From: Halobacteriovoraceae bacterium
Lineage (GTDB): Bacteria; Bdellovibrionota; Bacteriovoracia; Bacteriovoracales; Bacteriovoracaceae
Assembly: GCA_963719505.1 (NCBI GenBank)
Contig: CAVRCF010000001.1
Location: forward strand, 1,152,001-1,216,000
Direction of reading: 5' to 3'
Length of the DNA: 64,000 nucleotides
Position 1 is the first letter of the stretch. Every line of letters begins with the position of its first letter. Shown here in pieces: positions 15,835 to 38,637 of this stretch. A program made the translations under genes and the position numbers. Under the pieces are notes generated by a model that was given only the letters and a program-made list of their open reading frames with translations, searched no databases and had not been told where the DNA came from.

Positions 15835-15911
<77 letters not shown>

Positions 15912-16009
15912 TTTTAAGTCATTTCAAGTACTTGCAATCATTATGTTTTAAGCCCTAAAGTCGAACCCGTAAAGGTTCGATAAACCTATGAGCTTAAAAT
16001 GAGGTTTTT

Positions 16010-17251
16010 ATGCAAGTGAGAAAAGTAAAAAACAGTGATGGGTCTGTGCGTTATCGGTACAGGTACTATGAGAAAGGTAAATTAAAGTCTGTTCTCAACA
16101 GTGACCTCCCTTATCATCCAAAAACTGATGAACAAGCAGAAGTACTAAGGAAGAGATTAGAGTCAACCTATGAGGCTGCCAAGTTAGAAACGAAGAGCCA
16201 AGAAGAATGGCACGAGAAATACTACAGCTATAACTCCCTATTTGAGACTTTCGCAAAGTACCGCAAAAAAAAAGCTAAGAACTCCTATAAAGACAAGCTT
16301 TCATATTTTAGAAACTATGTTCTTCTCTACTTTTTAGAAATCCAAAAGCTTGAGAATCTTGAGACCTGGAAAGAAAGGCGGTACGACTTCGTATTGTGGC
16401 TAAGAGAAAGAGATAAGATGCGAGGAGAAGGTAAATTAGCTTCTCAGACTATCAATCATATAATCACAGAGTTTAATGTATTTATTGATTTAATGGCTCA
16501 GACAGGCAAAATAGAAGCTCCTTTTACTATAAATTTACTGCACAAGGATGAACTCAACAAAAGAGGAGCTGAGGCGGTCCTTTCCGATGAAGAAAGTGAA
16601 CTTCTTTTAGAGGAGCTAGCAAAATTTGATGTAAAAAGCTCTGAAATCTTCAGGGTGCTTCTAAATACAGGTATGAGATACAACGAATTGTTAAGCCTTG
16701 AGAGATCTAGTATTAAAAAGGGTGAAATCCCCGAAAAATCACTGACCAAAGCACTCAACTACGGAATGGCTAATAAAACAATGTATTGTTATATTGTTCT
16801 AAGCTCTCAAATAGATAAATCCACAGGTAAAAGAAAGCCTCTTAAGTCAAAGAAGCAAATCTCTATCGCTGACTCAAGGTTTGTTCCTATTTATGATAAA
16901 GAAACATTCAATATTTTAGTTAGGGCCTTAAAAGAATCTAAAGCTAAAGAAGAAGAAACTTTATTTCACTACTTTTACAAGTATTCTCGATTAAATAGAG
17001 CTTTGAAGAAAGCTTATGATCAAATTGGTCAGTACACAAAAAAGTATTCTTATAAGTCTTCTCACTCTGCAAGGCACACGTATGCTACTTATTTATCTCA
17101 AATTGATCCATCATCTTATTTAGCGACGACTATCTTAGGGCATAACTATCAAACATCGGCTCGGTATAATCACACTCACGCAATATTAATGAAAAAGCTA
17201 ATTAATGAAGCTAATACGGTTGATATAGATGACTGGGAAGAAGTTGCATGA
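16010..17251 (+). CDS. Tyrosine recombinase / integrase
   Basis: TGMRYNEL, HSARHTYAT, LGH...Y catalytic residues; adjacent to attL. Confidence 0.93.
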   Translation: MQVRKVKNSDGSVRYRYRYYEKGKLKSVLNSDLPYHPKTDEQAEVLRKRLESTYEAAKLETKSQEEWHEKYYSYNSLFETFAKYRKKKAKNSYKDKLSYFRNYVLLYFLEIQKLENLETWKERRYDFVLWLRERDKMRGEGKLASQTINHIITEFNVFIDLMAQTGKIEAPFTINLLHKDELNKRGAEAVLSDEESELLLEELAKFDVKSSEIFRVLLNTGMRYNELLSLERSSIKKGEIPEKSLTKALNYGMANKTMYCYIVLSSQIDKSTGKRKPLKSKKQISIADSRFVPIYDKETFNILVRALKESKAKEEETLFHYFYKYSRLNRALKKAYDQIGQYTKKYSYKSSHSARHTYATYLSQIDPSSYLATTILGHNYQTSARYNHTHAILMKKLINEANTVDIDDWEEVA

Positions 17252-19101: not shown

Positions 19102-19719
19102 TTAGTACGGCGATCGAATAGTATTCAGAAAGGAAATATACTCCAAGATAATTCTAACTTCTCTTTTAAAGGTCCTACTAAAATCGTTCAGCTTTTGAAG
19201 ATCTAAAAAGCGTTCATGATATATATCTATTGCTTTATGAAAAGCTTCTGAATGAGGTGTTCCTCCGTTCTTGAGAAGATCAATAAGTGACCTTTCCTTA
19301 CTGTACATTTTTACATTATGCTTCTTATCGATTCTGTAATCTTCTATACCGATTAACTTGGATCGACCTACTCTAGTAGCAATAAATAGGTCATTCTCGG
19401 TCAGGGTTGAGTTTCTCGGAATATCAACAGAAAGGGGGCTGGGGAATTGCTCTCCCAATCCGTGATAATATAGCGAGGAAGTACCAGACACAACAGCATT
19501 AGGGTGAGTCTTAGCTAAAGCGATTAGATTCTCGTTGGCCGGGTTATGTATATCTTCGCCTACAATATAGAGACCTCTGCTTATCTGCTTCAAAACTCCG
19601 GCCTTTTTAAAACGTGATATTTCTGTTCTATTACCTAGAAGCTTCAATAGCTCTTTAGTTGAGTACATCTCGCCTTCGTGTCGTTTTAAAAAATCAGTAT
19701 ATTTCTTAGATTTAAGCAT
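19102..19719 (-). CDS. AbiEi-like (type IV TA antitoxin) wHTH transcriptional regulator
   Basis: GVLKQISRGLY, VVSGTSSLYYHGL, YSKERSLID motifs; TACAAT 6 nt before ATG 19719 suggests a leaderless mRNA. Confidence 0.8.
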   Translation of the reverse strand: MLKSKKYTDFLKRHEGEMYSTKELLKLLGNRTEISRFKKAGVLKQISRGLYIVGEDIHNPANENLIALAKTHPNAVVSGTSSLYYHGLGEQFPSPLSVDIPRNSTLTENDLFIATRVGRSKLIGIEDYRIDKKHNVKMYSKERSLIDLLKNGGTPHSEAFHKAIDIYHERFLDLQKLNDFSRTFKREVRIILEYISFLNTIRSPY

Positions 19720-19993
19720 TGTTATATTGTACACCACTTATTGTATTATTGGTATAGAATGTAACAAAGCCAAAGAAGAAAAGGGATATATCACCACAAG
19801 TGATTGATTTTACTCGGTTTCTCATACCAACATCCCTTAACCACTATACCGATGGTTTTTCAAAAAATTGCAGATATATCGAAAATAGCCTATAATGAGC
19901 CATATAGTGCATCTTGTAACAAGCTGATCACTTACTTGCGTTTATGCTTACGATAGCTTGGCGAGGCTAATAAGGTATTATTAGAGGATATTT

Positions 19994-20692
19994 ATGAAGA
20001 CATATACAATTAGAGATTATGAGTTCGAAGAAGGGCTCTATAAGGCAGATTTCCTTAGAGTTGTCTTAAACGGTGGTCAGGATATAAAAGAAGGTACTGA
20101 TGAGTACAAAGAGCTTATTAAGAATGGGATGAACCTTCACAGAGCAGTTGGTCAGCATAGCGATTATCTACACAAACTTAGAAGAGGTTTTTACTATATC
20201 GGTCCCAAGAATAAAGCTCAGAGAAAAACATTTGATTGGGAGATCATCCACGAGTTTTATCCAGATTTTGTTGTTTCTAGAATCCATGCTTTATATCTCT
20301 GAAAGCTCATTGATAAAGAAGATATTGATCAAGATTCAATTTCTCTAGACTATTCCAGTGAATCGAAAAGAAATACGGGTAAAGAGTTAGATATCAAGTT
20401 GTTAGTTGATGAGCGCTTTAAGCCATACATGTACGACATATATAAATTCAAAAATGGAGCCCAGGTTAAGTGCTACACAAAAGAGAGAGCTCTAATTGAT
20501 GCATTTCTAATAGGGAATAAAGACAATCGAAATATCTACTTTAAGGCTATCAGTCGCTATTTCAAGTCAGAAGGCTTCTCTCCTGAGGTTCTCGAACGGT
20601 TTTCTAAGCTTAAGAAAGTCTTTAAGAGAGAATGCAAGGATATCATTGGCAAATTAGAGCATTTAAACTTTCTGAAGAAGAATAAGCTCTAA
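19994..20692 (+). pseudogene. Second AbiEi-like gene interrupted by in-frame TGA at 20300-20302
   Basis: ORFs 19994-20302 and 20399-20692 share one frame with no other stop; LHKLRRGFY, VVSRIHALYL*KL, YTKERALID align with the 19102 paralog. Confidence 0.75.
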
Positions 20693-20778: not shown

Positions 20779-21393
20779 TTAAGACGATTTCCTCAAAAAC
20801 AGTTCTCTCATGGTTTTCTTTTCGTCGACATGAGAATAATTCTGGACCATTTTTAAACTCATCTTTAAAGTTTGAGCTATCTGTAAATCTGATAGATTCG
20901 AATTCAGAAGAAGTGAAACGTTACTATGTCTGAGACTATGTAGATCTAGGTCATCGCCTAGGTCTTTCCTTATACATCTGTAACAGAGGTTTCTAGAGAT
21001 TCGGCCATCTTTATTCTTGAAGATAAACTCCTGAGGTTTAAGCCTCTTAAAGATTCTTTCCAGTAAAGGGTTTATAGATGGATCAATAGTAATATATCTC
21101 TCAGTATCAAAGTCCTTTTTCTTCTTTAGAACCTTCATCTTTGCTGTGTAGAACCCATCCTCTAAAACGAAGTCTTTCTTCTTTAAAGATAGGGATTCAG
21201 AGATTCGTGCCCCTGAGCAGTAGATAACTGAATAAAGAAGCCTAAAAATTTCATCGATTTCCTCGTCTTGAATAAGAGTATCTAAGAAAGCACTCAGCTT
21301 AGAATCTTTGACAACACAGACCTTTTTACCTTTAGAAGAGGTTGCTCTAACGGATTCGTAGAAAAAGTCTTTATATCTGTCATTAATTTCCAT
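20779..21393 (-). CDS. Small tyrosine recombinase (catalytic domain only)
   Basis: GARISESLSL, HSLRH, C-terminal Y (VQNYSH); AGGAG RBS. Confidence 0.88.
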   Translation of the reverse strand: MEINDRYKDFFYESVRATSSKGKKVCVVKDSKLSAFLDTLIQDEEIDEIFRLLYSVIYCSGARISESLSLKKKDFVLEDGFYTAKMKVLKKKKDFDTERYITIDPSINPLLERIFKRLKPQEFIFKNKDGRISRNLCYRCIRKDLGDDLDLHSLRHSNVSLLLNSNLSDLQIAQTLKMSLKMVQNYSHVDEKKTMRELFLRKSS

Positions 21394-22593: not shown

Positions 22594-23781
22594 CTAAAAC
22601 TTAGAGATCAGCTGAGCTGTTCCATTTGGATAGATAATTACAATTGAAACCGTCCAAGAAGATGCCCCGCCCCTGGCATAGTTTTGCTTCGAGATATCAG
22701 TTAAATGACCTACGGAGAAGTTCTCTCCTGAATATCCCCCAGCGTGATTATGACCTGTACACGATTTTGGTATGTATTTCTCAGCTGATCTATAATTAAA
22801 GCGAGCCCCGTTACTGCCTTTGTGACCATGGAGACTCATTTCGAACCCACACTCTTGAACCGGAGTATCATCCATAAAATTAATGTTTCTGTTTATTTTA
22901 TGGTATTTTTTCAGTGCTATTTCTATAGTAGGAACTGACTGATTAAGAGATAATGTATTTCTCATAAGTTCTGCTTTTAACTCATGAAGAATAATTTTAT
23001 CAATTTCTGCCGCCTTTCTAAACTTCTCGTCGTCTTTTAGAAAGCGATCTAAAAAGTCATCATGATTTGACTCAACGATATTGAGTGTTTTAAATTTAGA
23101 AGAAATCTTATTAAGAGTTTTGGCTAGGGAAGCAAGTTCTTTTTCTAATGAAACCCCATAAGCTATCTTATTTGTTATATACATAGAGGAGTTAACCTCG
23201 TGCGGGTTTAAACTGATGCCGTCGAAGACATCTCCAACATAAATATTCTTAACTCCTACTTTTTGAGCGTAGTTAGTTGCCCAAGCTAACGATTTCTTAT
23301 CATGAGTAAATTCGTGTAGATCTCCGAACAGACAAGCTTTTGCGTTGCCTTTTTTCCATCCATTCTTTGTAAATAATATTCCGTTATCATAGACTTTATT
23401 GTCTCTTTGAGTGAGATTTCTGATTTCAAACTTAGTATCGTTTTTAACCGAGACTAATAGGGCATATGGCCCAACACCTAAACCAACCATAGCTCTTGTC
23501 GATCTGTTTACTGTCGGTATATGACTTAAGTAGTTCTTATTAGATGACATATAGATAGCGCTGGACCCTTGAGATGCTCTACAGGCAGCCATTTCGCTGA
23601 TCTGAGCACAAGGAAAGACAACAAGATTCTTATTAAACTCTATAGTTACGTACTTATTCTTATTGTTCTTAACAAGTAAGCAGAGCTTAGCCTTATATCT
23701 CTTCTTGATCTGAGCTAAAATCTCAGAACTAAATTCACCAAGGTTCTCTTCTCGAATAATAATATAGTTGGTTGCCTTCAT
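22594..23781 (-). CDS. Calcineurin-like metallophosphoesterase, phage T5 A1-like
   Basis: GDLH, GDVFD, SNHD, HGHKGSNGAR, GHNH, Y..G.SSW...IIYPNG. Confidence 0.75.
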   Translation of the reverse strand: MKATNYIIIREENLGEFSSEILAQIKKRYKAKLCLLVKNNKNKYVTIEFNKNLVVFPCAQISEMAACRASQGSSAIYMSSNKNYLSHIPTVNRSTRAMVGLGVGPYALLVSVKNDTKFEIRNLTQRDNKVYDNGILFTKNGWKKGNAKACLFGDLHEFTHDKKSLAWATNYAQKVGVKNIYVGDVFDGISLNPHEVNSSMYITNKIAYGVSLEKELASLAKTLNKISSKFKTLNIVESNHDDFLDRFLKDDEKFRKAAEIDKIILHELKAELMRNTLSLNQSVPTIEIALKKYHKINRNINFMDDTPVQECGFEMSLHGHKGSNGARFNYRSAEKYIPKSCTGHNHAGGYSGENFSVGHLTDISKQNYARGGASSWTVSIVIIYPNGTAQLISKF

Positions 23782-23790
23782 AGCTCCCCC

Positions 23791-24321
23791 TTAAGCCGCC
23801 AGCTTCGTTGATGCTTTTTTTTGTTTCTTGTTCTCTCTTGCTCTTTTATTATTTTCTGCACTTGTGACAACTTCCAAGTTCTCGGCTCTATTATCTGACC
23901 TAATCTTATTACCGTGATCAACTTGGCATTTGGTGCCCAAAATTAGACCAGTAAAGCATTCGATCATTAATCTATGCACATACATGTTATTCGATTTTCC
24001 TTTACCGATTCCATGGGTAATGTAGCGATATTCATTAGGCTTAGCGGTTAGCTTTCTCTTTTTCCTGGGACCAAATACTTCACCTTTGATATTTATCGAG
24101 AGTGGCAAGTATGGGTGAGCTATCAATTTCTCTTTGAAATTCTTCTTTTTAAACGCCTTAGCCTTAGCAATAGCTTCTTTGAATTTCTTATTGACTAAAT
24201 CAATCTTCTCGACGCCAATCGGTGTCATCGTCTGAGCTTTGATCTTTCTGTCGTTCATCATTTTTTGTGTTTGTGTCATTTTCTTTGCTTTTGCTTTCAT
24301 CTTCTTTGCTTTTGTTTTCAT
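23791..24321 (-). CDS. HNH endonuclease (homing-type) with Lys-rich N-terminus
   Basis: YVHRLMIECF, VDHGNKIRSDNRAENLEVVTSAENN. Confidence 0.88.
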   Translation of the reverse strand: MKTKAKKMKAKAKKMTQTQKMMNDRKIKAQTMTPIGVEKIDLVNKKFKEAIAKAKAFKKKNFKEKLIAHPYLPLSINIKGEVFGPRKKRKLTAKPNEYRYITHGIGKGKSNNMYVHRLMIECFTGLILGTKCQVDHGNKIRSDNRAENLEVVTSAENNKRARENKKQKKASTKLAA

Positions 24322-24549
24322 CTCGCCTCCCAGGCTATTACGTTCTTTAGAGCATTTGCCCGTTCTGGAAAGTAATATACCTTTGTTGAAAAAAAGTGCT
24401 TTTTTAGGGGGTTTAGAATCGAACCATTTGTTACAAACTGTTGTTTTTGTTGGTTTTTTACTGCTTTCGCCATTTTGAGGGTGATTTAAAATAAAACGAA
24501 AGGGAGCTATTTTTTTTTGAGAGGTATATTGTTAAAAACGGACCAAGCG

Positions 24550-24675
24550 ATGGAGCTAATTGTGTTTAAAAGAGAGCCTAGTATTTTAGAGAAGACGATA
24601 GAATCAACAATCGATGTCTTTGTCGTTGGATTTAAAGCTACTCTGTATTTAATAATTCAAATGCTAAGAGAATAA
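24550..24675 (+). CDS. Putative 41-aa peptide
   Basis: MELIVFKREP...QMLRE, just after a promoter-like motif; weak RBS. Confidence 0.4.
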   Translation: MELIVFKREPSILEKTIESTIDVFVVGFKATLYLIIQMLRE

Positions 24676-24698
24676 ATTAAATCACTTCGGAGAGACTC

Positions 24699-24827
24699 AT
24701 GGAAAATAATGAATTTACAATATCTAAGATATGTTTTTTGACCATAGTTTCAGGATTATTCCTTGGAATTCTGGTCACTTATTGGTCTGTTAACGAGATT
24801 ATTCTAGTTATCGAATCACTCCGCTAG
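24699..24827 (+). CDS. 42-aa single-TM peptide
   Basis: GGAGAG RBS; MENNEFTISKICFLTIVSGLFLGILVTYWSV... Confidence 0.6.
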   Translation: MENNEFTISKICFLTIVSGLFLGILVTYWSVNEIILVIESLR

Positions 24828-24893
24828 ACCAAGCGAGGCCCTCTTGAATCTAAAAGGTATATTAAGCAAAACAACAACAACAAGGAGAGGATA

Positions 24894-25388
24894 ATGGAGA
24901 AAGAATTCAACACTACTGTAGAAGACAAGTTTAGAGACGCTCAAAACCTGTTTAAGCAACAACTAAGGAGTAACAACAAGGCTGAGAAAGCTATTGGTCT
25001 AGTATTTTTCTCCCTAACTACTTCGTGGACTCTAGTCCTTATTCATAGCTATCTCTTTTCTACTTATTTCGATAAAAGCTTTAAGGATCTTTATATTCTA
25101 ACTGTTTTCATCTCCATACTTTTTTCTGGAGGCTTGGATTATTCCCTATTTGCTCTCTTCAGATTTACAACGAGCAAAGTGGTATTAATCGTCAATATCG
25201 TACTTTTCTCATATCTATATTATGTAGTTGGAACTCATTCGCTTTTAATTGGACTGGCTATCAACATTGCTCTTCTGTTTTATAGATTCTTAGCACCCAG
25301 TAAGTACTTGATGTTCAGTAATGAATTTATAGATGAGCAGCAAGCTAACCTTAATATCAAATCAACAGATTTATGTAAAAGACACTAG
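24894..25388 (+). CDS. Multi-pass membrane protein
   Basis: About four TM segments, AAGGAGAGG RBS. Confidence 0.75.
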   Translation: MEKEFNTTVEDKFRDAQNLFKQQLRSNNKAEKAIGLVFFSLTTSWTLVLIHSYLFSTYFDKSFKDLYILTVFISILFSGGLDYSLFALFRFTTSKVVLIVNIVLFSYLYYVVGTHSLLIGLAINIALLFYRFLAPSKYLMFSNEFIDEQQANLNIKSTDLCKRH

Positions 25389-25397
25389 GAGGTCATA

Positions 25398-25868
25398 ATG
25401 CATCTTAATAAATTAATATCAGCACAACGATTAGCGGCATCAGAGCAAAATAGCTTTCCGGCTACAGTATCTCCTAAGGCTGATTACGTAATTAAATTTT
25501 TGTTTGCTGTTTTGCTATATCCTCTTTATTTACTATTCAAAGTTAAAGAGAGTATTTTAAATTCTTTTAAAAATAGAAGAACCACCAAGGTATGGGATGA
25601 CGAAGATCAAGAGTTTAAAAACACTCAAGCCGCCAGTGAAACTATCGCCTACGATACAAACCTTCTTCATAGCATAAGAATTATCTTTTCTTCTTTTATG
25701 ATGATTGATGATGATAACAAAGAAAGAAGGTTTTATCACCAATACTACAACGTCACCGAGCTAATCGCTTATGTATCATCACTATATAGACATGTGGACT
25801 ATATTTTACTTTGCGTGTTTTATACAGGGTTCTTGGTAAGATTCATGAAATTCGTATTGGAGTCGTAA
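25398..25868 (+). CDS. Membrane protein
   Basis: AGGAGG RBS, two hydrophobic segments, TAATG coupling to the next gene. Confidence 0.7.
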   Translation: MHLNKLISAQRLAASEQNSFPATVSPKADYVIKFLFAVLLYPLYLLFKVKESILNSFKNRRTTKVWDDEDQEFKNTQAASETIAYDTNLLHSIRIIFSSFMMIDDDNKERRFYHQYYNVTELIAYVSSLYRHVDYILLCVFYTGFLVRFMKFVLES

Positions 25869-28465
25869 TGGAAGATAAATATATGTATTTAATTATTGCC
25901 GTTTGCCTTTTATTTGTAATCCCGGTAATAAAGTTACTTGGTTGGCTTTTAAGTAAGATTATTCGTGTTAATCCAATTCATGATAAGAATTATTATGACA
26001 AGATTAATAGAGAGAATAATAACGGGGGAGAGACTCCATATGGGGAGTTACTTACCTTAAGAGATCTTACTGTTATACAAAAGACTCGAAAGGTTTATAA
26101 CTATACAGATAATCTTGGATACCAAAGAAGAGAAGAGAGGGAGATTGAAGAGACTATTTATCCATCTGTTAAGAAGATAAAAAATGGTGTCCAAATCCAT
26201 TTCAGCGAAGAGTTAAGGAATACTGAGTTTACAAAAGATAGCTATACTCGATATATCGCTGATGTTTTTAACCAGAATTCTGTTACTGAGACTAAGAAGC
26301 TCCTAATGGTGAGAACTCCAAATCCATATATTGTTAATTACTTCCAAGTACATCCAGTTAATTACATGTTTAAGACGCCAATTGATGAGGATAGTGAGTT
26401 TAAAGCCAAACTCGATAAAGTATTAGATAAAGACAGCGCAGAACTTCTATTTGGAGAACCTCAAGTTGAATTAAACGTTCCGGATCAGATAGTTTGGCCA
26501 TTAACAGCTTCTCCTCATGTATTAGTTGCTGGTCAGACAAGATCCGGTAAGACTAAGACTATACTTAGTTTTATAACTCAAATTGCTACTGTCTATCCAG
26601 AGTCTAAATTTTTCTTCGCTGATGGTAAGAGTTCACCTGACTATGATCATTCTGCGGAATTTTTATCATCTCTACCTGTAGCAAAACCCCACCATAGTGA
26701 AGATCCATTAGTGAATCTCGCTTACATGGTTGATAAGGTGTGGGCAGAATATGAGAATCGTAAGAGATTATTTGAAGAACTAGCAGTTAAAGGAAATTCA
26801 TGTAGTACCTATATTGAGTATAATAATTATGTAGATGAAAAGCTCCCTCGTGTGTTTTTATTTATTGATGAATTTGCAGCGTTTTGTTTACTTGCCCCAG
26901 ATAAGGTAGCCTCTCTATTAACAGTCAAAGGTACTCTATTTAACAAGATTAGAAGATTGCTCGCAGAATCGGCTTCATATGGGTTTAGTATTATAATAGC
27001 TTCTCAAAGGGTACAAAATACGGATTTCCCAACTGCAATTCGTGATAATCTAACTACGTGGCTTATCCATTCAGTAAATGAGAAAGCTGCTGAATTTCTT
27101 GATCTTAAAGGGAAGGTGGGGAAACTTAAGCCTGGAGCGTTCATATTGAAGATACAAGGTTTAAGGTGTGAAAACTCTGGCGAAGCTAATATCGAATCAA
27201 GATTGCCTTATGTCGGTAACGAGCCTCAAAAGGTTAAGACCTTAAAGAAGGATATAGTTAAAGAATCTTTTGATGAAGATTACATTTATACTACTGGACT
27301 TGATACTGATTATTCCAAGCTTCCTCCTAATTCATTAAAGAAATATGTAAAGAACCTATTTTGTGTAAGAGAAGGTTTTGAAGTTATCAAGAATGAAGAT
27401 GCTGAACATGATCACCTTTCTCTGTTTGTTAAGAAAGGTAATAAGCAATATGCAATTGGTTTCGTTGAAGTAGATGAGCTTATAGATGAAACATTCTATA
27501 CTCGTTTAAATCGATTTCTTTCAGATGAAGAGAAGCTAATGCAGAAGATTTTTTTTGTAAGAGGTAATATTACCTCAAAAGCTAAAGAAACAAATATCTC
27601 TGAACTAGTTGATATGAACGGTGATATCGCCCTAATACAGCAGGATTATGTGCGTAGGCTTAAGAAGGCTAAGAAGCTGTATGATGATGGGGATAGTGAA
27701 GAGATCTTCTCTGCATTACTTGTTGGTATCAAAGCAGATGAGAAGAAAGAAGCTCTTTTAATCGACAAGAAGGATGCTGAGCTAGGAAGTGTTGAGATCT
27801 CTATTAACGAATTAGAAAGGATCAATAATCTCTCAGGATCTTCTGATGCCCAAAAGATAGCTAAAGGGGAGCAGTTTGAGAGATTCGTTCACGCTCTATT
27901 TAGACAAATTGGTTGGACTACATACACCCCAGAACTGCTATTCGCTAAGAGGATCTATAAAAGACCTGGCGATGTTGGGGATTTAGGGCTGGATATGTTA
28001 TTAGCTAAAACAGATACGGATCTCAGAGAACTATCGCAAGAAGAAGCTGATAATAGAGTTGCTGTACAGATCAAGAATTGGAACTCAGCAATTCCGGCAA
28101 AGGTTCTTGGTGAAGTATTGAGATCCTACCACAATTTTAAATGTCTCAAGAATGGAACTCCTATCAAAAAAGGGATGGTTGTCTCAACGTCCACATACAC
28201 CCAATATACAAAGTTAGAGGCTTCAAATCAAGGAATAGAGCTCATAGGATACAATGACCTAAGAAAGCTCGTTATAGACGCTGTGAGGGACGCTCAGAGC
28301 GCAGGAGAAGCACATCAGGCTATCCCTTTTGCTGAGATGGATAGAGATGAGCAAATCCTTCATTTAAACGAGCAAGGACTAAGTTTGAGAGATATCGCTA
28401 CTAGAGTAGGGGTTAAGTCTCCATCTACTGTTAGGAACGTATTGAAAAAAGCGGAGGCTGCATGA
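25868..28465 (+). CDS. FtsK/SpoIIIE-family ATPase fused to Mrr-like restriction endonuclease and C-terminal HTH
   Basis: N-terminal TM; PHVLVAGQTRSGKT Walker A; FIDEF Walker B; ASQR; GEQFE...GDLGLD...AVQIK; GLSLRDIATRVGVKSPSTV. Confidence 0.88.
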   Translation: MEDKYMYLIIAVCLLFVIPVIKLLGWLLSKIIRVNPIHDKNYYDKINRENNNGGETPYGELLTLRDLTVIQKTRKVYNYTDNLGYQRREEREIEETIYPSVKKIKNGVQIHFSEELRNTEFTKDSYTRYIADVFNQNSVTETKKLLMVRTPNPYIVNYFQVHPVNYMFKTPIDEDSEFKAKLDKVLDKDSAELLFGEPQVELNVPDQIVWPLTASPHVLVAGQTRSGKTKTILSFITQIATVYPESKFFFADGKSSPDYDHSAEFLSSLPVAKPHHSEDPLVNLAYMVDKVWAEYENRKRLFEELAVKGNSCSTYIEYNNYVDEKLPRVFLFIDEFAAFCLLAPDKVASLLTVKGTLFNKIRRLLAESASYGFSIIIASQRVQNTDFPTAIRDNLTTWLIHSVNEKAAEFLDLKGKVGKLKPGAFILKIQGLRCENSGEANIESRLPYVGNEPQKVKTLKKDIVKESFDEDYIYTTGLDTDYSKLPPNSLKKYVKNLFCVREGFEVIKNEDAEHDHLSLFVKKGNKQYAIGFVEVDELIDETFYTRLNRFLSDEEKLMQKIFFVRGNITSKAKETNISELVDMNGDIALIQQDYVRRLKKAKKLYDDGDSEEIFSALLVGIKADEKKEALLIDKKDAELGSVEISINELERINNLSGSSDAQKIAKGEQFERFVHALFRQIGWTTYTPELLFAKRIYKRPGDVGDLGLDMLLAKTDTDLRELSQEEADNRVAVQIKNWNSAIPAKVLGEVLRSYHNFKCLKNGTPIKKGMVVSTSTYTQYTKLEASNQGIELIGYNDLRKLVIDAVRDAQSAGEAHQAIPFAEMDRDEQILHLNEQGLSLRDIATRVGVKSPSTVRNVLKKAEAA

Positions 28466-28875
28466 ACAAATCAGATATAATTGAGAAGATCGAAACTCTT
28501 AAGAGTATGCCTGTTTTTAAGAAAAGGTTCTTGTCTAAAGATGGGTATCTAATTCCCATTAGGCTCACAATCATCAAATCGAACAAGATTAATGCCTGCG
28601 TATACAAACAAGGATCAAGAAGGGATGTCGCCAATATGAACGTTAATTCGTCATATTTTGGTTTAACTGAGAATCAGAAACTTTTCATTATAGCGCATGA
28701 GATGACCCATATTTTACATAGGGACTATTCTTTCATAGGGGCTCATTTACCTATAGTTTCTCGCATTAAAGAGAAAAGGGCAGATATAACAGCCGCCAAA
28801 GTATGTCGAGATATGGGTATTGATATGGGTGAAATTATAGAACTATTTAAGGGGCCACAAAAGAGGAATATTTAG
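28462..28875 (+). CDS. HEXXH zinc metallopeptidase-like protein (ImmA/IrrE/M48-like)
   Basis: FIIAHEMTH...EKRAD; ATGA overlap with the FtsK gene. Confidence 0.75.
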   Translation: MNKSDIIEKIETLKSMPVFKKRFLSKDGYLIPIRLTIIKSNKINACVYKQGSRRDVANMNVNSSYFGLTENQKLFIIAHEMTHILHRDYSFIGAHLPIVSRIKEKRADITAAKVCRDMGIDMGEIIELFKGPQKRNI

Positions 28876-28940
28876 CAGGATAGCTTCGTTTCTTGAGGAC
28901 TCCCATCCATCTCATTATGATCGATTTCAATACCTCAAGG

Positions 28941-29123
28941 TGTTCATTCAAGTGTCCATTTAGCTGTTCATATCTGTCCAATCCAGATTGAACGGCCGTT
29001 CATTTCAAATTCTAAATTGCTGTAATTACATGAGAATGAACACTTAACAGGTGAAATGAACAGGTTTCAGAGAATATTTGTGTGTGACGGAATATATTGA
29101 TAATTATCGATATATTTTGAACA
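28941..29123. repeat. TGT(T/C)CA direct/inverted repeat array
   Basis: Direct copies at 28941, 28953, 28965, 28975; palindrome TGAACGGCCGTTCA at 28989-29002; inverted TGAACA at 29037, 29057, 29118. Confidence 0.65.
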
Positions 29124-29296
29124 GCAGATGTTGGATGAGGGAGAGGAGAGCCTCATATATTAAGCCCTTAGATTATATACATATAAATATTATTTAATTA
29201 GTTGTTTAGTTAGTTGCTTAATGAGCTTACGTAGATCACTGACTCCTATGATCTTTATGTAAGCTCACTAACTTCATACTTACACAACCTTTTGGA

Positions 29297-29893
29297 CTAT
29301 CTTGATTTATCTAGATCAACTCTGTATTCAGTCCCTAGTTTGCCTTCGATCTCGTGATAAGTTAGCACAAAATCTTTTGTCATTATGACCTCTCCAGCTT
29401 GGATTACTTTAGGATTATTAAATCCCTCATTTATAGCTTTCTCTAGTTCTAAAGCATTCTTCCTCTTAACCTTATTGCGCTTCATCCCAAGGCAGTGAAA
29501 ACCAGAACAATCCCATTTCATAAGAGCTTTTTTAGCTTGTTGTTTAAGTGCTTCAACATCAGAAGAATTGTCTATGTAAAGAGAATAGTCATCCAAGGTT
29601 TTATATTCAATATGTTTCACATCTTTATCATGGGTGTAGGTAACTTTCACATTGAATTTCTTTGTTATAACTTCTAACCCAGATCTGATAATTTTGATCT
29701 CCTCTTTGCCTACTTGATCAAGAACTTCTATTTTGTGATTGAGAGTCGTTCTATTTTCATTGTTTATTGTCTCGTAATATCTATCTCTGATCTTCTCATT
29801 TAATGAGTTGCTTACTTCCTCTGGTAGAGAAGAGGTACAACTAGCAAAAAATAGAATTGATATTACACTAAGTAGGTTTCCGATTTTGATCAT
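29297..29893 (-). CDS. Lipoprotein, hypothetical
   Basis: Lipobox FASC; AAGGAG RBS. Confidence 0.75.
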   Translation of the reverse strand: MIKIGNLLSVISILFFASCTSSLPEEVSNSLNEKIRDRYYETINNENRTTLNHKIEVLDQVGKEEIKIIRSGLEVITKKFNVKVTYTHDKDVKHIEYKTLDDYSLYIDNSSDVEALKQQAKKALMKWDCSGFHCLGMKRNKVKRKNALELEKAINEGFNNPKVIQAGEVIMTKDFVLTYHEIEGKLGTEYRVDLDKSR

Positions 29894-30013
29894 TTATTCT
29901 CCTTTTTGGTTTCGTTATGAAGTGTTGCCTTTTAGTATTATAGCACAGTATGTAACGATGCGTTAGTGTTAATTTAAAATGGTTCTAGTTTCATTATTTG
30001 GAGATAATCAATG

Positions 30014-30288
30014 AAAAGCGACCACCAATAAATTTTATATAAAAAAGCGACCACCAATAAATTTTATATAAAAAAGCGACCACCATTAAATTGTTTAAAA
30101 GCGACCACCTCAAGTGTTTGAAATATCGATCAGGTGATCCATTTTAAAAAGCGACCACTAGTTTTGCTAAGTATTTGATACTACATAAAAGCGACCACCT
30201 TTAATTGGATCTGGTCCGAAAAAAGGACGTAAATAGCCGTAAATATGCTGGATTAGGTGGTCTCACTAATAATTAATAAAAGCGACCA
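30014..30288 (+). repeat. Iteron-like array AAAAGCGACCA(CC) x7
   Basis: Copies at 30014, 30043, 30072, 30097, 30147, 30187, 30278; inverted GGTGGTC at 30256; IHF consensus at 30168-30180. Confidence 0.9.
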
Positions 30289-30304
30289 TTAAGAAGAAAT
30301 CTTA

Positions 30305-30829
30305 TTAGAATCTTGGGGGTGGAGAACAAAGAAGTTTTCTTTCCTGATTATCTCCAACACATTCTTTTACATATTTATCGTTATGAAGATTTGGTGTTCT
30401 AGAGCAGTCCCACTCTTGAAGTTGTTTGAAAGCGTAACTTTCATCCAATTTCCAAAAAGTCGTATGAACAGCAAGAGAATATTCGCTCTGATTTTTTTCT
30501 ATTACATAAGTAAACATCTGTTTCTTTGGGTCCACTTTTGTGATCTTATAGAACAATCCTCTTTTTTGATCGATCAAACATTTTCCTACGCTGATTTGAT
30601 TCCACTTCAACATGTCATAAGTATTCTGATACGGTCTATTTGGAAGCTTGTCACCGTCAGTTAGTTTAACTGGGGCGACTCTCGCTTTTTGCTCTTCACT
30701 AGCTCCTAAGAGCGCTGAACCTTCTGGCATATTAACAACTGAAATTTCTGTACACTTACCATCTCGACAAACAATTTCACCGAAAGCAATTGTAGAAGTA
30801 AGTAAGCTAATTAAAATTAATAGTCTCAT
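30305..30829 (-). CDS. Secreted Cys-containing hypothetical protein
   Basis: Signal peptide, six Cys, AAGGAG RBS. Confidence 0.75.
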   Translation of the reverse strand: MRLLILISLLTSTIAFGEIVCRDGKCTEISVVNMPEGSALLGASEEQKARVAPVKLTDGDKLPNRPYQNTYDMLKWNQISVGKCLIDQKRGLFYKITKVDPKKQMFTYVIEKNQSEYSLAVHTTFWKLDESYAFKQLQEWDCSRTPNLHNDKYVKECVGDNQERKLLCSPPPRF

Positions 30830-34697: not shown

Positions 34698-35951
34698 ATG
34701 AAAAAAATATTTTTTTTACTATTAACAATATCTAGTTTGATCTCGTGTAGCAAAAAGGAAGACACGAAATTAGTTGATGCATTCGACATTCCACCAGTTA
34801 AGCAAACTAATAATACGCCTGTGAGTTCTAATGATTCAGTTCTAACGAGGTTCAATAGAGTTTATAATGACTCTCTACAAGCTTCTGATAGCGATTCTGA
34901 CCCACTTGTGTATTCATTGGTGACTAATGCCTCAAATGGAGTTGTTGTAATTACAGATAGCTCTTCAGGCTCTTATACATATACTCCCAATACTGGTCAT
35001 GTAGGAGCTGATAGTTTTGAGTTTAAAGTAAACGATGGAACAGAAGACTCTAACACTTCTCTTGTGAACATTGACGTTAAAAACCCCGAAACAATCTATG
35101 TCGGCACTAGCAATGGACTATCAATTTCTACTGATGGCGGTTTAACTTTTGTAAATAGACTGGAGACTTTAGATGTTAAAGATATTCAAATAACGGAGTC
35201 GGGCGATATCTATGTCGGAACAAACTTCGACATTTATATTTCTACTGATGGAGGTTCAACCTTTACTTCAAGATACTATGGTAGTGATGATTTCGTTAGT
35301 ATGTATATTGACAGCTCAGGCGCTATCTTTGTTGCGACAGACTGGGAACTGCTAAAGTCTACAAATAACGGACTGTCATTCAATTCTTTACTCTCTTCTT
35401 CATTGTTACAATCGGTAGATGGCGATGATTCAGGAAATATTTATGTTAGTTATGAGCTCTTTGGTTTTTCTATCTCTACTGATGGAGGAAGCAACTTTAC
35501 TAATTATTCAACAGCAAATGGACTTGGAAGTGATGATTTGTTTTCTTCTTTTGTAGATACTAACGGAACAATCTATGCATCAACCTTTAACGGTTTATCA
35601 ATTTCGACTGATGGAGGAAGTAACTTTACTAACTATACAACTGTAAATGGACTTGGAAGTGATGATTTGTTTTCTTCTTTTGTAGATACTAACGGAACAA
35701 TCTATGCATCAACCTTTAACGGTTTATCAATTTCGACTGATGGAGGAAGTAACTTTACTAACTATACAACTGTAAATGGACTTGGATCTAATCAAATAAC
35801 TTCAGTTTTTGCTGATGGCTTTGGTGGTGTTTACGTAGGAACTGTTAATAGTTTCAATATATCATTCGATAGTGGAGAGACTTTCATTAATTTAACAACA
35901 GCTGCCGGTTTAGCCGGTAATGGCGTCAGTGAATTAGTAGTAATAGAGTAG
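34698..35951 (+). CDS. Lipoprotein with Ig/cadherin-like domain and Asp-box (BNR) beta-propeller repeats
   Basis: Lipobox LISC; YTYTPN..G.DSFEFKVNDG; repeated STDGG.F. Confidence 0.85.
   Translation: MKKIFFLLLTISSLISCSKKEDTKLVDAFDIPPVKQTNNTPVSSNDSVLTRFNRVYNDSLQASDSDSDPLVYSLVTNASNGVVVITDSSSGSYTYTPNTGHVGADSFEFKVNDGTEDSNTSLVNIDVKNPETIYVGTSNGLSISTDGGLTFVNRLETLDVKDIQITESGDIYVGTNFDIYISTDGGSTFTSRYYGSDDFVSMYIDSSGAIFVATDWELLKSTNNGLSFNSLLSSSLLQSVDGDDSGNIYVSYELFGFSISTDGGSNFTNYSTANGLGSDDLFSSFVDTNGTIYASTFNGLSISTDGGSNFTNYTTVNGLGSDDLFSSFVDTNGTIYASTFNGLSISTDGGSNFTNYTTVNGLGSNQITSVFADGFGGVYVGTVNSFNISFDSGETFINLTTAAGLAGNGVSELVVIE
35516..35786 (+). repeat. Exact 129-bp intragenic tandem duplication
   Basis: AAATGGACTTGGA... 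recurs at 35516, 35645, 35774 with identical intervening sequence. Confidence 0.9.
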
Positions 35952-36341: not shown

Positions 36342-37010
36342 ATGAAACTCGTTTTCATTTCGGACACTCATTCTAAACATCGTGAGCTAGGCAAGCTTGC
36401 TGGAGACATCCTTATTCACTCGGGTGACTTCACCACGAAGGGAGAACTAGAACAAGTTATAGACTTCGTTGATTATCTCTCCAGTTTAGAATTTAAAAAC
36501 ATCATAGTCATCTCCGGTAATCATGATTTCTGCATGGAATCAAATAGCGATATTAGAGAAGAGTGTGAAAAGATATTTAAAGATGCGGGAATAATATATC
36601 TCAATGATAGTGGAGTTACGATAGAAGGCCTTAAGTTTTTTGGATCTCCAGTATCTCCGCATTTTGCAGGATGGGGGTTCGAAAAGACTCGCGGTACTGA
36701 TATTAAGAAGCATTGGGATTTAATACCAGCTGATACTGATATTCTAATAACTCATGGTCCAGCGTTCGGTCTTTTAGACAGAACTCTCGACGGAACAAAC
36801 GTAGGCTGTGAGGACCTCAGAGAGCGTATTCACGAAATTAAGCCCTTAATCCATGGTTGCGGCCATATACATGAAGCATACGGCGAATTGGAGTCTGAGG
36901 GGACATTGTTTATAAACGCTTCTTCCTTAGATATTTTTTATCGCTGTATAAATGATCCAATCGTCGTTGATCTTAAAAAAGACAAGGACGGAAAATACTC
37001 ATACAGATAG
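36342..37010 (+). CDS. Metallophosphoesterase (MPPED/239FB-like)
   Basis: SDTH, HSGD, GNHD, THGP, GHIHE. Confidence 0.92.
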   Translation: MKLVFISDTHSKHRELGKLAGDILIHSGDFTTKGELEQVIDFVDYLSSLEFKNIIVISGNHDFCMESNSDIREECEKIFKDAGIIYLNDSGVTIEGLKFFGSPVSPHFAGWGFEKTRGTDIKKHWDLIPADTDILITHGPAFGLLDRTLDGTNVGCEDLRERIHEIKPLIHGCGHIHEAYGELESEGTLFINASSLDIFYRCINDPIVVDLKKDKDGKYSYR

Positions 37011-38609: not shown

Positions 38610-38637
38610 GGTTCGAATCCTGCTGGTTGCGCCATTT
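38610..38637 (+). repeat. attR core (duplicated tRNA-Arg 3' end)
   Basis: Identical to 15887-15914. Confidence 0.97.

Follow-up and report, generated by a model that had tools for sequence, protein, structure and literature searches.

Streptomyces TraB, a conjugative translocase for double-stranded DNA encoded on plasmids and AICEs, works together with Spd membrane proteins and with 8-bp clt repeats, and the entry of double-stranded circular DNA into the pore of an FtsK-type motor is described as still unresolved for TraB-type transfer (PMC12857230). DNA donation by the tRNA-integrated element ICETh1 requires a hexameric membrane-bound FtsK/HerA ATPase and two nucleases (PMC5365140). MOB_C relaxases such as TraX of pAD1 have a PD-(D/E)xK domain, bind five direct repeats of the origin of transfer (oriT) and form no covalent intermediate (PMC12857230). 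A 64,000-nucleotide (nt) stretch of contig CAVRCF010000001.1 from a probably predatory Halobacteriovoraceae bacterium, hereafter the window, to which all plain coordinates refer, encodes an 865-amino-acid (aa) protein in which a membrane anchor, an FtsK-type motor, a restriction endonuclease (REase)-like domain, an Mrr nuclease domain and a helix-turn-helix (HTH) are fused. Comparative evidence has established that this fusion is real, intact, conserved, accessory and resident on mobile elements. The fusion operon lies on a 22.7-kb element integrated at a tRNA-Arg gene, and we tentatively read the fusion protein as the DNA-processing and export motor of this element, in the manner of TraB, TdtA or the MOB_C relaxases.

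The fusion protein resembles TraB in that both are membrane FtsK-type motors with a C-terminal DNA-reading domain on a tRNA-integrated element; in both cases the operon also encodes small membrane proteins, and short direct repeats lie near the gene (PMC12857230, PMC5365140). TraB, however, has no nuclease domain, and the fusion protein gives 20.2 bits with the TraB profile NF041214, whose cut-off is 800; its host is probably a diderm member of the Bdellovibrionota and no actinomycete, and its upstream membrane proteins are orphans. TcpA (pCW3, Firmicute elements) provides the best sequence match among solved structures (6o1w, E 2.4e-9) and is also anchored by an N-terminal transmembrane (TM) segment, and members of the fusion family in two other elements lie beside VirB4 and a second TcpA-like ATPase. 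TcpA differs in lacking a nuclease and an HTH, and profile scans of 25 open reading frames (ORFs) of the integrated element, hereafter the island, gave no match to VirB4, a relaxase or any other component of a type IV secretion system (T4SS). Since a coupling protein is expected to share its element with both VirB4 and a relaxase, the island does not qualify its motor as one, whereas the two related elements supply a VirB4-like neighbour. MOB_C relaxases (TraX of pAD1 and MobC of CloDF13) share the PD-(D/E)xK domain and a direct-repeat array (PMC12857230), but they are not fused to a motor, and residues 640–865 of the fusion protein, the Mrr-HTH part, match nothing at E ≤ 0.01 in 72,556 plasmid records. 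Functionally, the nearest known case of "cut and push" is ICETh1 of Thermus thermophilus, with TdtA, a NurA-like nuclease and Tth111II, a small tRNA-integrated element equipped with direct repeats and a recombinase; TdtA is HerA-like, however, the nucleases are separate proteins of other families, and transfer proceeds via the competence system of the recipient (PMC5365140).

The operon consists of four tightly packed plus-strand genes in the ORF listing with translations. ORF1 (24894–25388; 164 aa) and ORF2 (25398–25868; 156 aa) have four and two TM helices, respectively, predicted by our own Kyte-Doolittle hydropathy scan, and the 9-nt gap between them contains AGGAGG. The fusion gene follows at 25868–28465, and a gene for a mini M48-like zinc peptidase with HExxH and E-x-RAD motifs (28462–28875; 137 aa) overlaps its stop codon as ATGA. 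The ORF lister begins the large gene at TTG 25811, but ATG 25868 was adopted; because a GGAG lies 8 nt upstream of this ATG and the independently called protein P0046 begins at the identical Met, the 865-aa form is taken as the product. The A of ATG 25868 is the final base of the ORF2 stop codon TAA, a 1-nt overlap, and the fusion gene is tightly coupled to the genes on both sides. A promoter and terminator scan of 24300–30400 found fewer sites than in shuffled sequence. An unlisted small ORF upstream of ORF1 (24700–24828, plus strand), read by eye, would encode a hydrophobic peptide of about 42 aa, so that the operon may include one more small membrane protein.

The hydropathy scan also places a single TM helix at residues 6–24 of the fusion protein (25883–25939, plus strand; hydropathy 2.73), directly followed by a K/R-rich stretch, and the positive-inside rule predicts that most of the protein faces the cytoplasm. 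The FtsK/SpoIIIE-type P-loop motor occupies approximately residues 206–450 (26483–27217, plus strand) according to Pfam, PHROG and PDB profile comparisons. FtsK_SpoIIIE (PF01580) covers residues 206–347 with E 2.1e-7 and 31 bits against a cut-off of 24, and the motor matches phrog_1358 with E 2e-21. Its motifs are Walker A at residues 222–229, Walker B at 334–335 and ASQR at 378–381. When a family profile is compared with PDB sequences, TcpA is followed by FtsK (2iuu, E 9.4e-9), and so TcpA, a conjugative coupling protein, is by sequence the closest solved relative of the motor, tied with FtsK. The anchor and the ATPase motifs predicted at the outset are thus both present.

The Mrr_cat PD-(D/E)xK nuclease domain (PF04471) covers residues 666–801 (27863–28270, plus strand) with E 2.9e-12 and 47.2 bits against a cut-off of 21, and its motif is formed by E671, D709, Q734 and K736, as expected from the intact Mrr motif noticed earlier. 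In an AlphaFold model of residues 452–865 (predicted local distance difference test, pLDDT, 85.1), the Mrr part matches AF1548 in VIA comparisons with Z 11.6 over 117 residues at a root-mean-square deviation (rmsd) of 2.4, followed by the LlaBIII (type ISP) nuclease domain (Z 9.9), AspBHI (Z 9.3), N.BspD6I and FokI; Foldseek agrees (1y88, E 7.4e-4). The preceding middle domain (residues 478–618; 27299–27721, plus strand) had been proposed as a possibly degenerate REase-like segment. Folded alone it reaches a pLDDT of 95.4 with an alpha-beta-beta-beta-alpha-beta order, and VIA once more ranks AF1548 first (Z 8.1 over 114 residues at an rmsd of 4.0), ahead of N.BspD6I (Z 7.1), the VC1899 nuclease domain (Z 7.0), and R.BspD6I2, Can2 and LlaBIII down to Z 6.3, with flavodoxin-like folds at Z 5–6. 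Foldseek returns nothing for it at E ≤ 1e-3, and its list consists mostly of REase-fold proteins. An alignment of 22 family members shows no conserved D...(D/E)xK triad in this domain; the conserved positions are F498, R501, E502, G503, G531 and F563/G566, and E537 is acidic in all 22. The middle domain is therefore probably a second REase-fold domain without a canonical active site, although the fold call is borderline, and the alignment supports its degeneracy. A CARF or Rossmann-like sensor, considered in view of the flavodoxin-like matches, was rejected on the basis of the beta-meander topology and the REase-like top matches. The C-terminal HTH (residues 828–861; 28349–28450, plus strand) matches HTH_38 (PF13936) with E 4.8e-5 and 23.4 bits, below the cut-off of 27. 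In VIA comparisons the terminal 45 residues match resolvase, small-terminase (Z 6.0) and sigma-4 HTHs at Z 5.7–6.6, the Tn3 resolvase HTH aligning with residues 367–414 of the model (Z 6.6, 42 residues, rmsd 2.7). These matches support a three-helix HTH of unassigned family. The parsing proposed in the original prediction is thus backed throughout by hidden Markov models (HMMs) together with folds, with the HTH below and the middle domain outside formal thresholds.

An exhaustive HMMER search of 1.84 billion representatives gave 352 matches at E ≤ 1e-3, 67 at E ≤ 1e-10 and 41 at E ≤ 1e-30, and by sequence the FtsK-Mrr fusion defines a rare family. Among 34 longer relatives chosen from the first 66 of the 150 rows listed, 22 carry Mrr_cat, and a weak HTH is found in P0012 alone. 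P0012 (862 aa) and P0013 (906 aa) align as far as query residues 857 and 863, so that their matches include the C-terminal region; P0011 has FtsK_gamma (PF09397) in place of the HTH. All 22 aligned members keep Walker A (G222, K228, S/T229), Walker B (D/E334, E335), Q380 and the Mrr residues E671, D709 and Q734-x-K736; R381 and R392 are each kept in 17 of the 22. The invariance of the ATPase and nuclease residues indicates, at the level of sequence, that both enzymatic activities are under selection. The named members come from metagenome-assembled genomes of Oligoflexia or Bdellovibrionales, the only source names being "restriction endonuclease [Bdellovibrionales bacterium]" for P0012 and "hypothetical protein [Oligoflexia bacterium]" for P0005, so that the family is annotated in no other terms; each of the ten clusters examined contains no more than two members. 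Fusion homologues occur in four of 400 other genomes of a phylum sample at E ≤ 1e-10, and at E ≤ 1e-15 in one of 236 other genomes of the host family and in none of the three of its genus. By this distribution the gene is sporadic or strain-specific and accessory, and the host has its own canonical FtsK elsewhere in the genome (205.8 bits). A stand-alone Mrr-HTH protein is encoded in genome G354.

Collections of mobile DNA returned the motor without its nuclease. IMG/VR gave eight relatives, all ATPase only at 23–29% identity, and 50,697 phage records gave 13, ATPase only at no more than 29% identity, with no close relative in either. Plasmid matches are likewise confined to the ATPase (25.0–30.5% identity), the best lying on a Bdellovibrio plasmid amid unannotated genes. 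On that plasmid the related FtsK-like gene, of 600 aa, lies near a clpX-like gene. A Walker A pattern scan of genome contigs found at least 80 loci, with ATPase matches only at 25–31% identity, and a metagenome scan with a family-specific pattern yielded 63 stretches with a single relative, L100. Two short database proteins, P0001 (506 aa) and P0046 (77 aa), represent fragments of a fusion gene nearly identical to that of the window but broken at two short homopolymer runs corresponding to window positions 26043 and 27551, where the T8 of the window is read as T7 and an extra A follows GGGG. P0001 is carried on a contig of 22,652 nt, near the 22,723 nt of the island, and this contig may be the mobile element assembled on its own.

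The island is bracketed by two identical 28-nt direct repeats (repeat family D8), putative attL at 15887–15914 and putative attR at 38610–38637, both on the plus strand and 22,723 nt apart. The repeat consists of the last 25 nt of tRNA-Arg(tct) (15835–15911, plus strand; ARAGORN) and 3 nt more, and a 413-aa tyrosine integrase gene (16010–17251, plus strand; Phage_integrase E 9.2e-10, phrog_1 E 2e-25) lies beside the tRNA. Because the tRNA gene, the adjoining integrase and the exact repeats bracket the operon, the operon lies within an integrated element. In an empty-site test with the three genomes of the same genus, a single contig of G420 carries the tRNA at about 1.3 kb from the right flank, but the two are in inverted relative orientation, so that the arrangement is no more than suggestive of an empty site.

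The five readable contexts of the fusion family (the window, G357, L100, G385 and G256) are all mobile elements. G357, from the family of the window genome, and L100 carry FtsK-Mrr genes of 1073 and 1094 aa that are 41.5% identical, each transcribed divergently from a syntenic block. This block encodes a VirB4-like ATPase (998 and 1011 aa, 37% identical to each other), an FtsK-like ATPase of 596 and 615 aa whose best PDB relative is TcpA, three small proteins and a DUF2227 protein. The VirB4-like ATPases match TIGR00929 (3.4e-21 and 7.5e-24) and TraC (2.6e-18 and 5.3e-21) below the curated cut-offs but with both ends covered. Divergence is even across the block (30–41% identity), and so it reads as backbone and not as cargo; the opposite flanks differ, with a TnpB gene in one element and a ribonucleotide reductase gene in the other. 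The components are encoded separately in G385, where the 4 kb after an 824-aa FtsK-like gene hold genes for a phage-metallopeptidase-like protein, a 222-aa M48 peptidase, a 246-aa Mrr_cat protein and an HTH-repeat protein of 206 aa, in keeping with the domain order of the window fusion, and PolA and a DUF3854 protein adjoin. In G256 the gene for an FtsK-Mrr fusion of 1088 aa is one gene away from that for a 195-aa M48 peptidase, and a VapE-like primase-helicase and a second Mrr_cat protein are encoded nearby. M48 is thus linked to FtsK-Mrr in the window, G385 and G256. The window M48-like protein (Pfam M48 E 6.3e-6, 26.6 bits against a cut-off of 20.3) lacks a hydrophobic insert present in the G385 and G256 peptidases, but H79, E80, H83 and E104-x-R106-A107-D108 are invariant in the alignment of the three. 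The fused-versus-split pattern and the repeated neighbourhood establish, from gene context, that FtsK, Mrr, HTH and M48 are functionally linked.

The G357 element (L098, L087 and L099; G357:C104:38000-97999) is large. It carries at least four DNA methyltransferase genes, several of them orphan, together with genes for thymidylate synthase, prepilin-peptidase-like, PAPS-reductase-like, DUF1643 and ApeA_NTD1 proteins, a ClpX-like AAA protein and an IS605-type TnpB.

The export reading of the fusion protein is favoured because the gene appears to be co-inherited, as backbone, with a VirB4/coupling-protein operon in two elements, and because the motor has a membrane anchor, an attached sequence-reading domain and repeat arrays beside its gene. 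The sequence-reading domain is an HTH in the window protein and FtsK_gamma in P0011; FtsK and TraB likewise carry such a domain. After excision, the motor would dock as a hexamer, through its HTH, on a repeated sequence of the element, and there are two candidate sites, both at repeat arrays noted in the original prediction. The first, a candidate cis site, is a GTTCAT array (28938–29063; three direct and two inverted copies) in the convergent intergenic gap directly 3' of the operon. TGTTCAT is not enriched in the whole window (19 observed, 13 expected), but four copies, two direct and two inverted, fall within 28941–29062; as single-stranded DNA the array has a fold z of −2.46, and one of 200 shuffles folds equally well. 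The second is a set of seven iteron-like direct repeats AAAAGCGACCAC(C) (30009–30295, plus strand), of which three keep a 29-nt spacing and are separated by AT-rich sequence; the 9-mer AGCGACCAC occurs in six exact copies in 30017–30198 against 0.1 expected in the whole window. The Mrr domain would then nick or cut the docked DNA. N.BspD6I and Can1 are tandems of an inactive and an active REase domain that nick, and by these examples the tandem in the fusion protein would favour nicking. The ATPase would pump this DNA across the inner membrane and on to a recipient, either alone, like Streptomyces TraB or Thermus TdtA, or by feeding a T4SS channel, which the long-form relatives encode in cis and which the window genome may provide in trans. 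Outside the window, this genome has two weak VirB4-family matches below the cut-off (G000:C5:1078762-1080024, E 3.7e-19, and G000:C2:235801-236568, E 8.1e-16), suggesting other conjugative modules able to act in trans. Accessory or regulatory roles would fall to the M48 peptidase and the small membrane proteins.

In the absence of a matching T4SS gene on the island, and given the low TraB score, this proposal comes near to an even chance without reaching it, and several further points weigh against it. The best library bit scores of the motor are to PHROG 1358, a phage FtsK-like family (76), mad8 (63) and SspH (46). Mrr_cat is a classic type IV restriction nuclease domain, and the best fold matches are restriction enzymes. 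There are five contexts only, two pairs of which possibly share descent, and about 36 other representatives are unplaced. A word-index search of 5.8 billion proteins recovered no relative of ORF1 and none of ORF2, in each case only the query itself; by this measure the two membrane proteins do not belong to the conserved core of the system. The iterons could just mark an origin of replication, and a stand-alone pump of double-stranded DNA must also cross the outer membrane if the host is diderm, as the probable phylum suggests. Excision, binding and transfer are all predicted from comparison.

Many of these points fit an enzyme of defence or exclusion carried by the element. It would be a restriction-like motor nuclease, driven by ATP and anchored in the membrane, whose motor loads onto phage or plasmid DNA entering at the inner membrane and draws it in for cleavage by Mrr, with the HTH or the degenerate REase domain recognising a modification or a sequence. 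Such an enzyme would resemble type ISP and type IV enzymes, or MAD7-MAD8 of MADS, and would serve as element cargo or in the exclusion of competitors; we regard this as possible but on balance doubtful. The ATPase matches the PADLOC profiles mad8 (E 6.8e-18) and SspH (E 2.6e-13), and MAD7/MAD8 form an ATPase-nuclease module needed for defence (PMC13662399); like the fusion protein, both systems combine an FtsK-like ATPase with a nuclease. These matches are restricted to the generic ATPase domain, however; no other MADS or Ssp gene and no cognate methyltransferase were found among the island ORFs, and MADS and Ssp proteins, as far as described, are not TM-anchored single polypeptides with an HTH. 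The folds match not only LlaBIII and AspBHI but also MspJI, Shedu, Card1/Can2 and Avs4, P0012 is labelled a restriction endonuclease by NCBI, and the distribution of the gene is sporadic and strain-specific, as would suit defence. The island also bears defence-type cargo: an AbiEi-like antitoxin gene (19102–19737, minus strand; E 2.8e-28), a second AbiEi C-terminal fragment (20399–20692, plus strand; PADLOC) and a 222-aa metallophosphoesterase (36342–37010, plus strand) that matches the PADLOC candidate family PDC-S10 over almost its whole length (E 1.6e-82). The scan of the island ORFs revealed no AbiEii toxin to partner AbiEi. The richness of the G357 element in orphan methyltransferases points the same way, but the VirB4/coupling-protein synteny at backbone-like divergence in two elements is unexpected for cargo. 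The attached HTH or FtsK_gamma and the adjoining repeat arrays better fit the handling of self DNA, and an unregulated membrane motor nuclease with no evident marker of self and non-self would be toxic. The VirB4 synteny, the location on a tRNA-integrated element and the membership in a rare, conserved family tilt the balance towards DNA transfer or processing without deciding between the readings. The alternative framed in the original prediction, a one-protein cut-and-pump conjugation machine or a membrane-anchored defence nuclease, still names the two leading readings, but "one-protein" is too strong because the conserved M48 partner and the T4SS module of the relatives suggest helpers.

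The other genes of the elements bring up a third and quite improbable explanation, namely that the fusion protein handles element DNA within the cell or in a virus-like manner, and not in conjugation. It could be a segregation or resolution motor acting with a short Xer-like recombinase, as FtsK acts with XerCD, or it could pump replicated element DNA into budding vesicles or pleomorphic virions, with Mrr as a terminase-like cutter; plasmavirus L2 presumably has an FtsK-like ATPase, although we did not find this confirmed in the literature. The island encodes a 204-aa Xer-like tyrosine recombinase consisting of the catalytic domain only (20779–21393, minus strand; Phage_integrase 7.2e-11), which matches XerD, XerC and XerA profiles at 4e-12 to 1e-9, below their cut-offs, and has a homologue in the G256 element (blastp, L089 2203–2772, E 1.8e-15). 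Replication genes (PolA, DUF3854 and VapE) on the related elements, the iterons on the island, the small-terminase-like HTH and a weak P-loop match of the fusion protein to the PHROG large terminase (9.3e-5) agree with such a role. Adjoining the operon, a 395-aa protein gene (22594–23781, minus strand; phrog_1745 "DNA transfer protein", E 1.8e-50, also a metallophosphoesterase PHROG) lies directly downstream of an HNH_3 endonuclease gene (23791–24321, minus strand), and phrog_1745 is, we assume, linked to A1 of phage T5. Several small island proteins have an N-terminal hydrophobic segment, and a secreted-looking protein of 417 aa (34698–35951, plus strand) has Big_9/cadherin-like and BNR-like parts. 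PHROGs, however, found no capsid, portal or other structural hallmark among the island ORFs, where the P-loop match is the sole terminase match; the viral and phage collections hold no close relative, and the VirB4 linkage of the relatives points to secretion or conjugation.

Among the remaining features of the island, a 174-aa protein with an N-terminal hydrophobic segment (30305–30829, minus strand) is the only non-fusion island protein with a homologue in the G357 element (L087 746–1267; 30.5% identity over 95 residues, E about 1e-7). The 395-aa protein and a 408-aa protein (phrog_4756) have no PDB sequence relatives, and Atlas gave unnamed phage or bacterial clusters only for both. Three tandem 129-nt repeats (35463–35849) lie within the gene of the 417-aa protein, and metallophosphoesterases recur in the G385 and G256 elements.

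The original prediction missed the tRNA-integrated element, the rare conserved family and the VirB4/coupling-protein operon beside its relatives. Mobile elements with FtsK-type motors are known, as are Mrr nucleases and HTHs, whereas a TM-anchored fusion of all three with a conserved M48 partner appears to be new; no description of an FtsK-Mrr fusion was found in the literature searched, a search that did not extend to Iyer et al. 2004 and paper supplements. If the defence reading is true, the fusion protein would represent a new membrane-anchored, FtsK-driven restriction architecture. If the transfer reading is true, FtsK-type transfer would no longer be confined to actinomycetes and Thermus but would include Gram-negative predators, a group whose mobile elements have hardly been studied, and this natural fusion of motor, nuclease and DNA reader would be a compact system for testing "cut and pump". 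The boldest form of the export reading, which we consider unlikely, is a relaxase-free "dock, nick and pump" enzyme that unites a coupling motor, a restriction-fold relaxase and an oriT-reading HTH in one membrane-anchored polypeptide. If this is true, a small integrative element of predatory Bdellovibrionota could export its own DNA with a single enzyme, and the VirB4-feeding long-form relatives would represent the ancestral, T4SS-dependent state.

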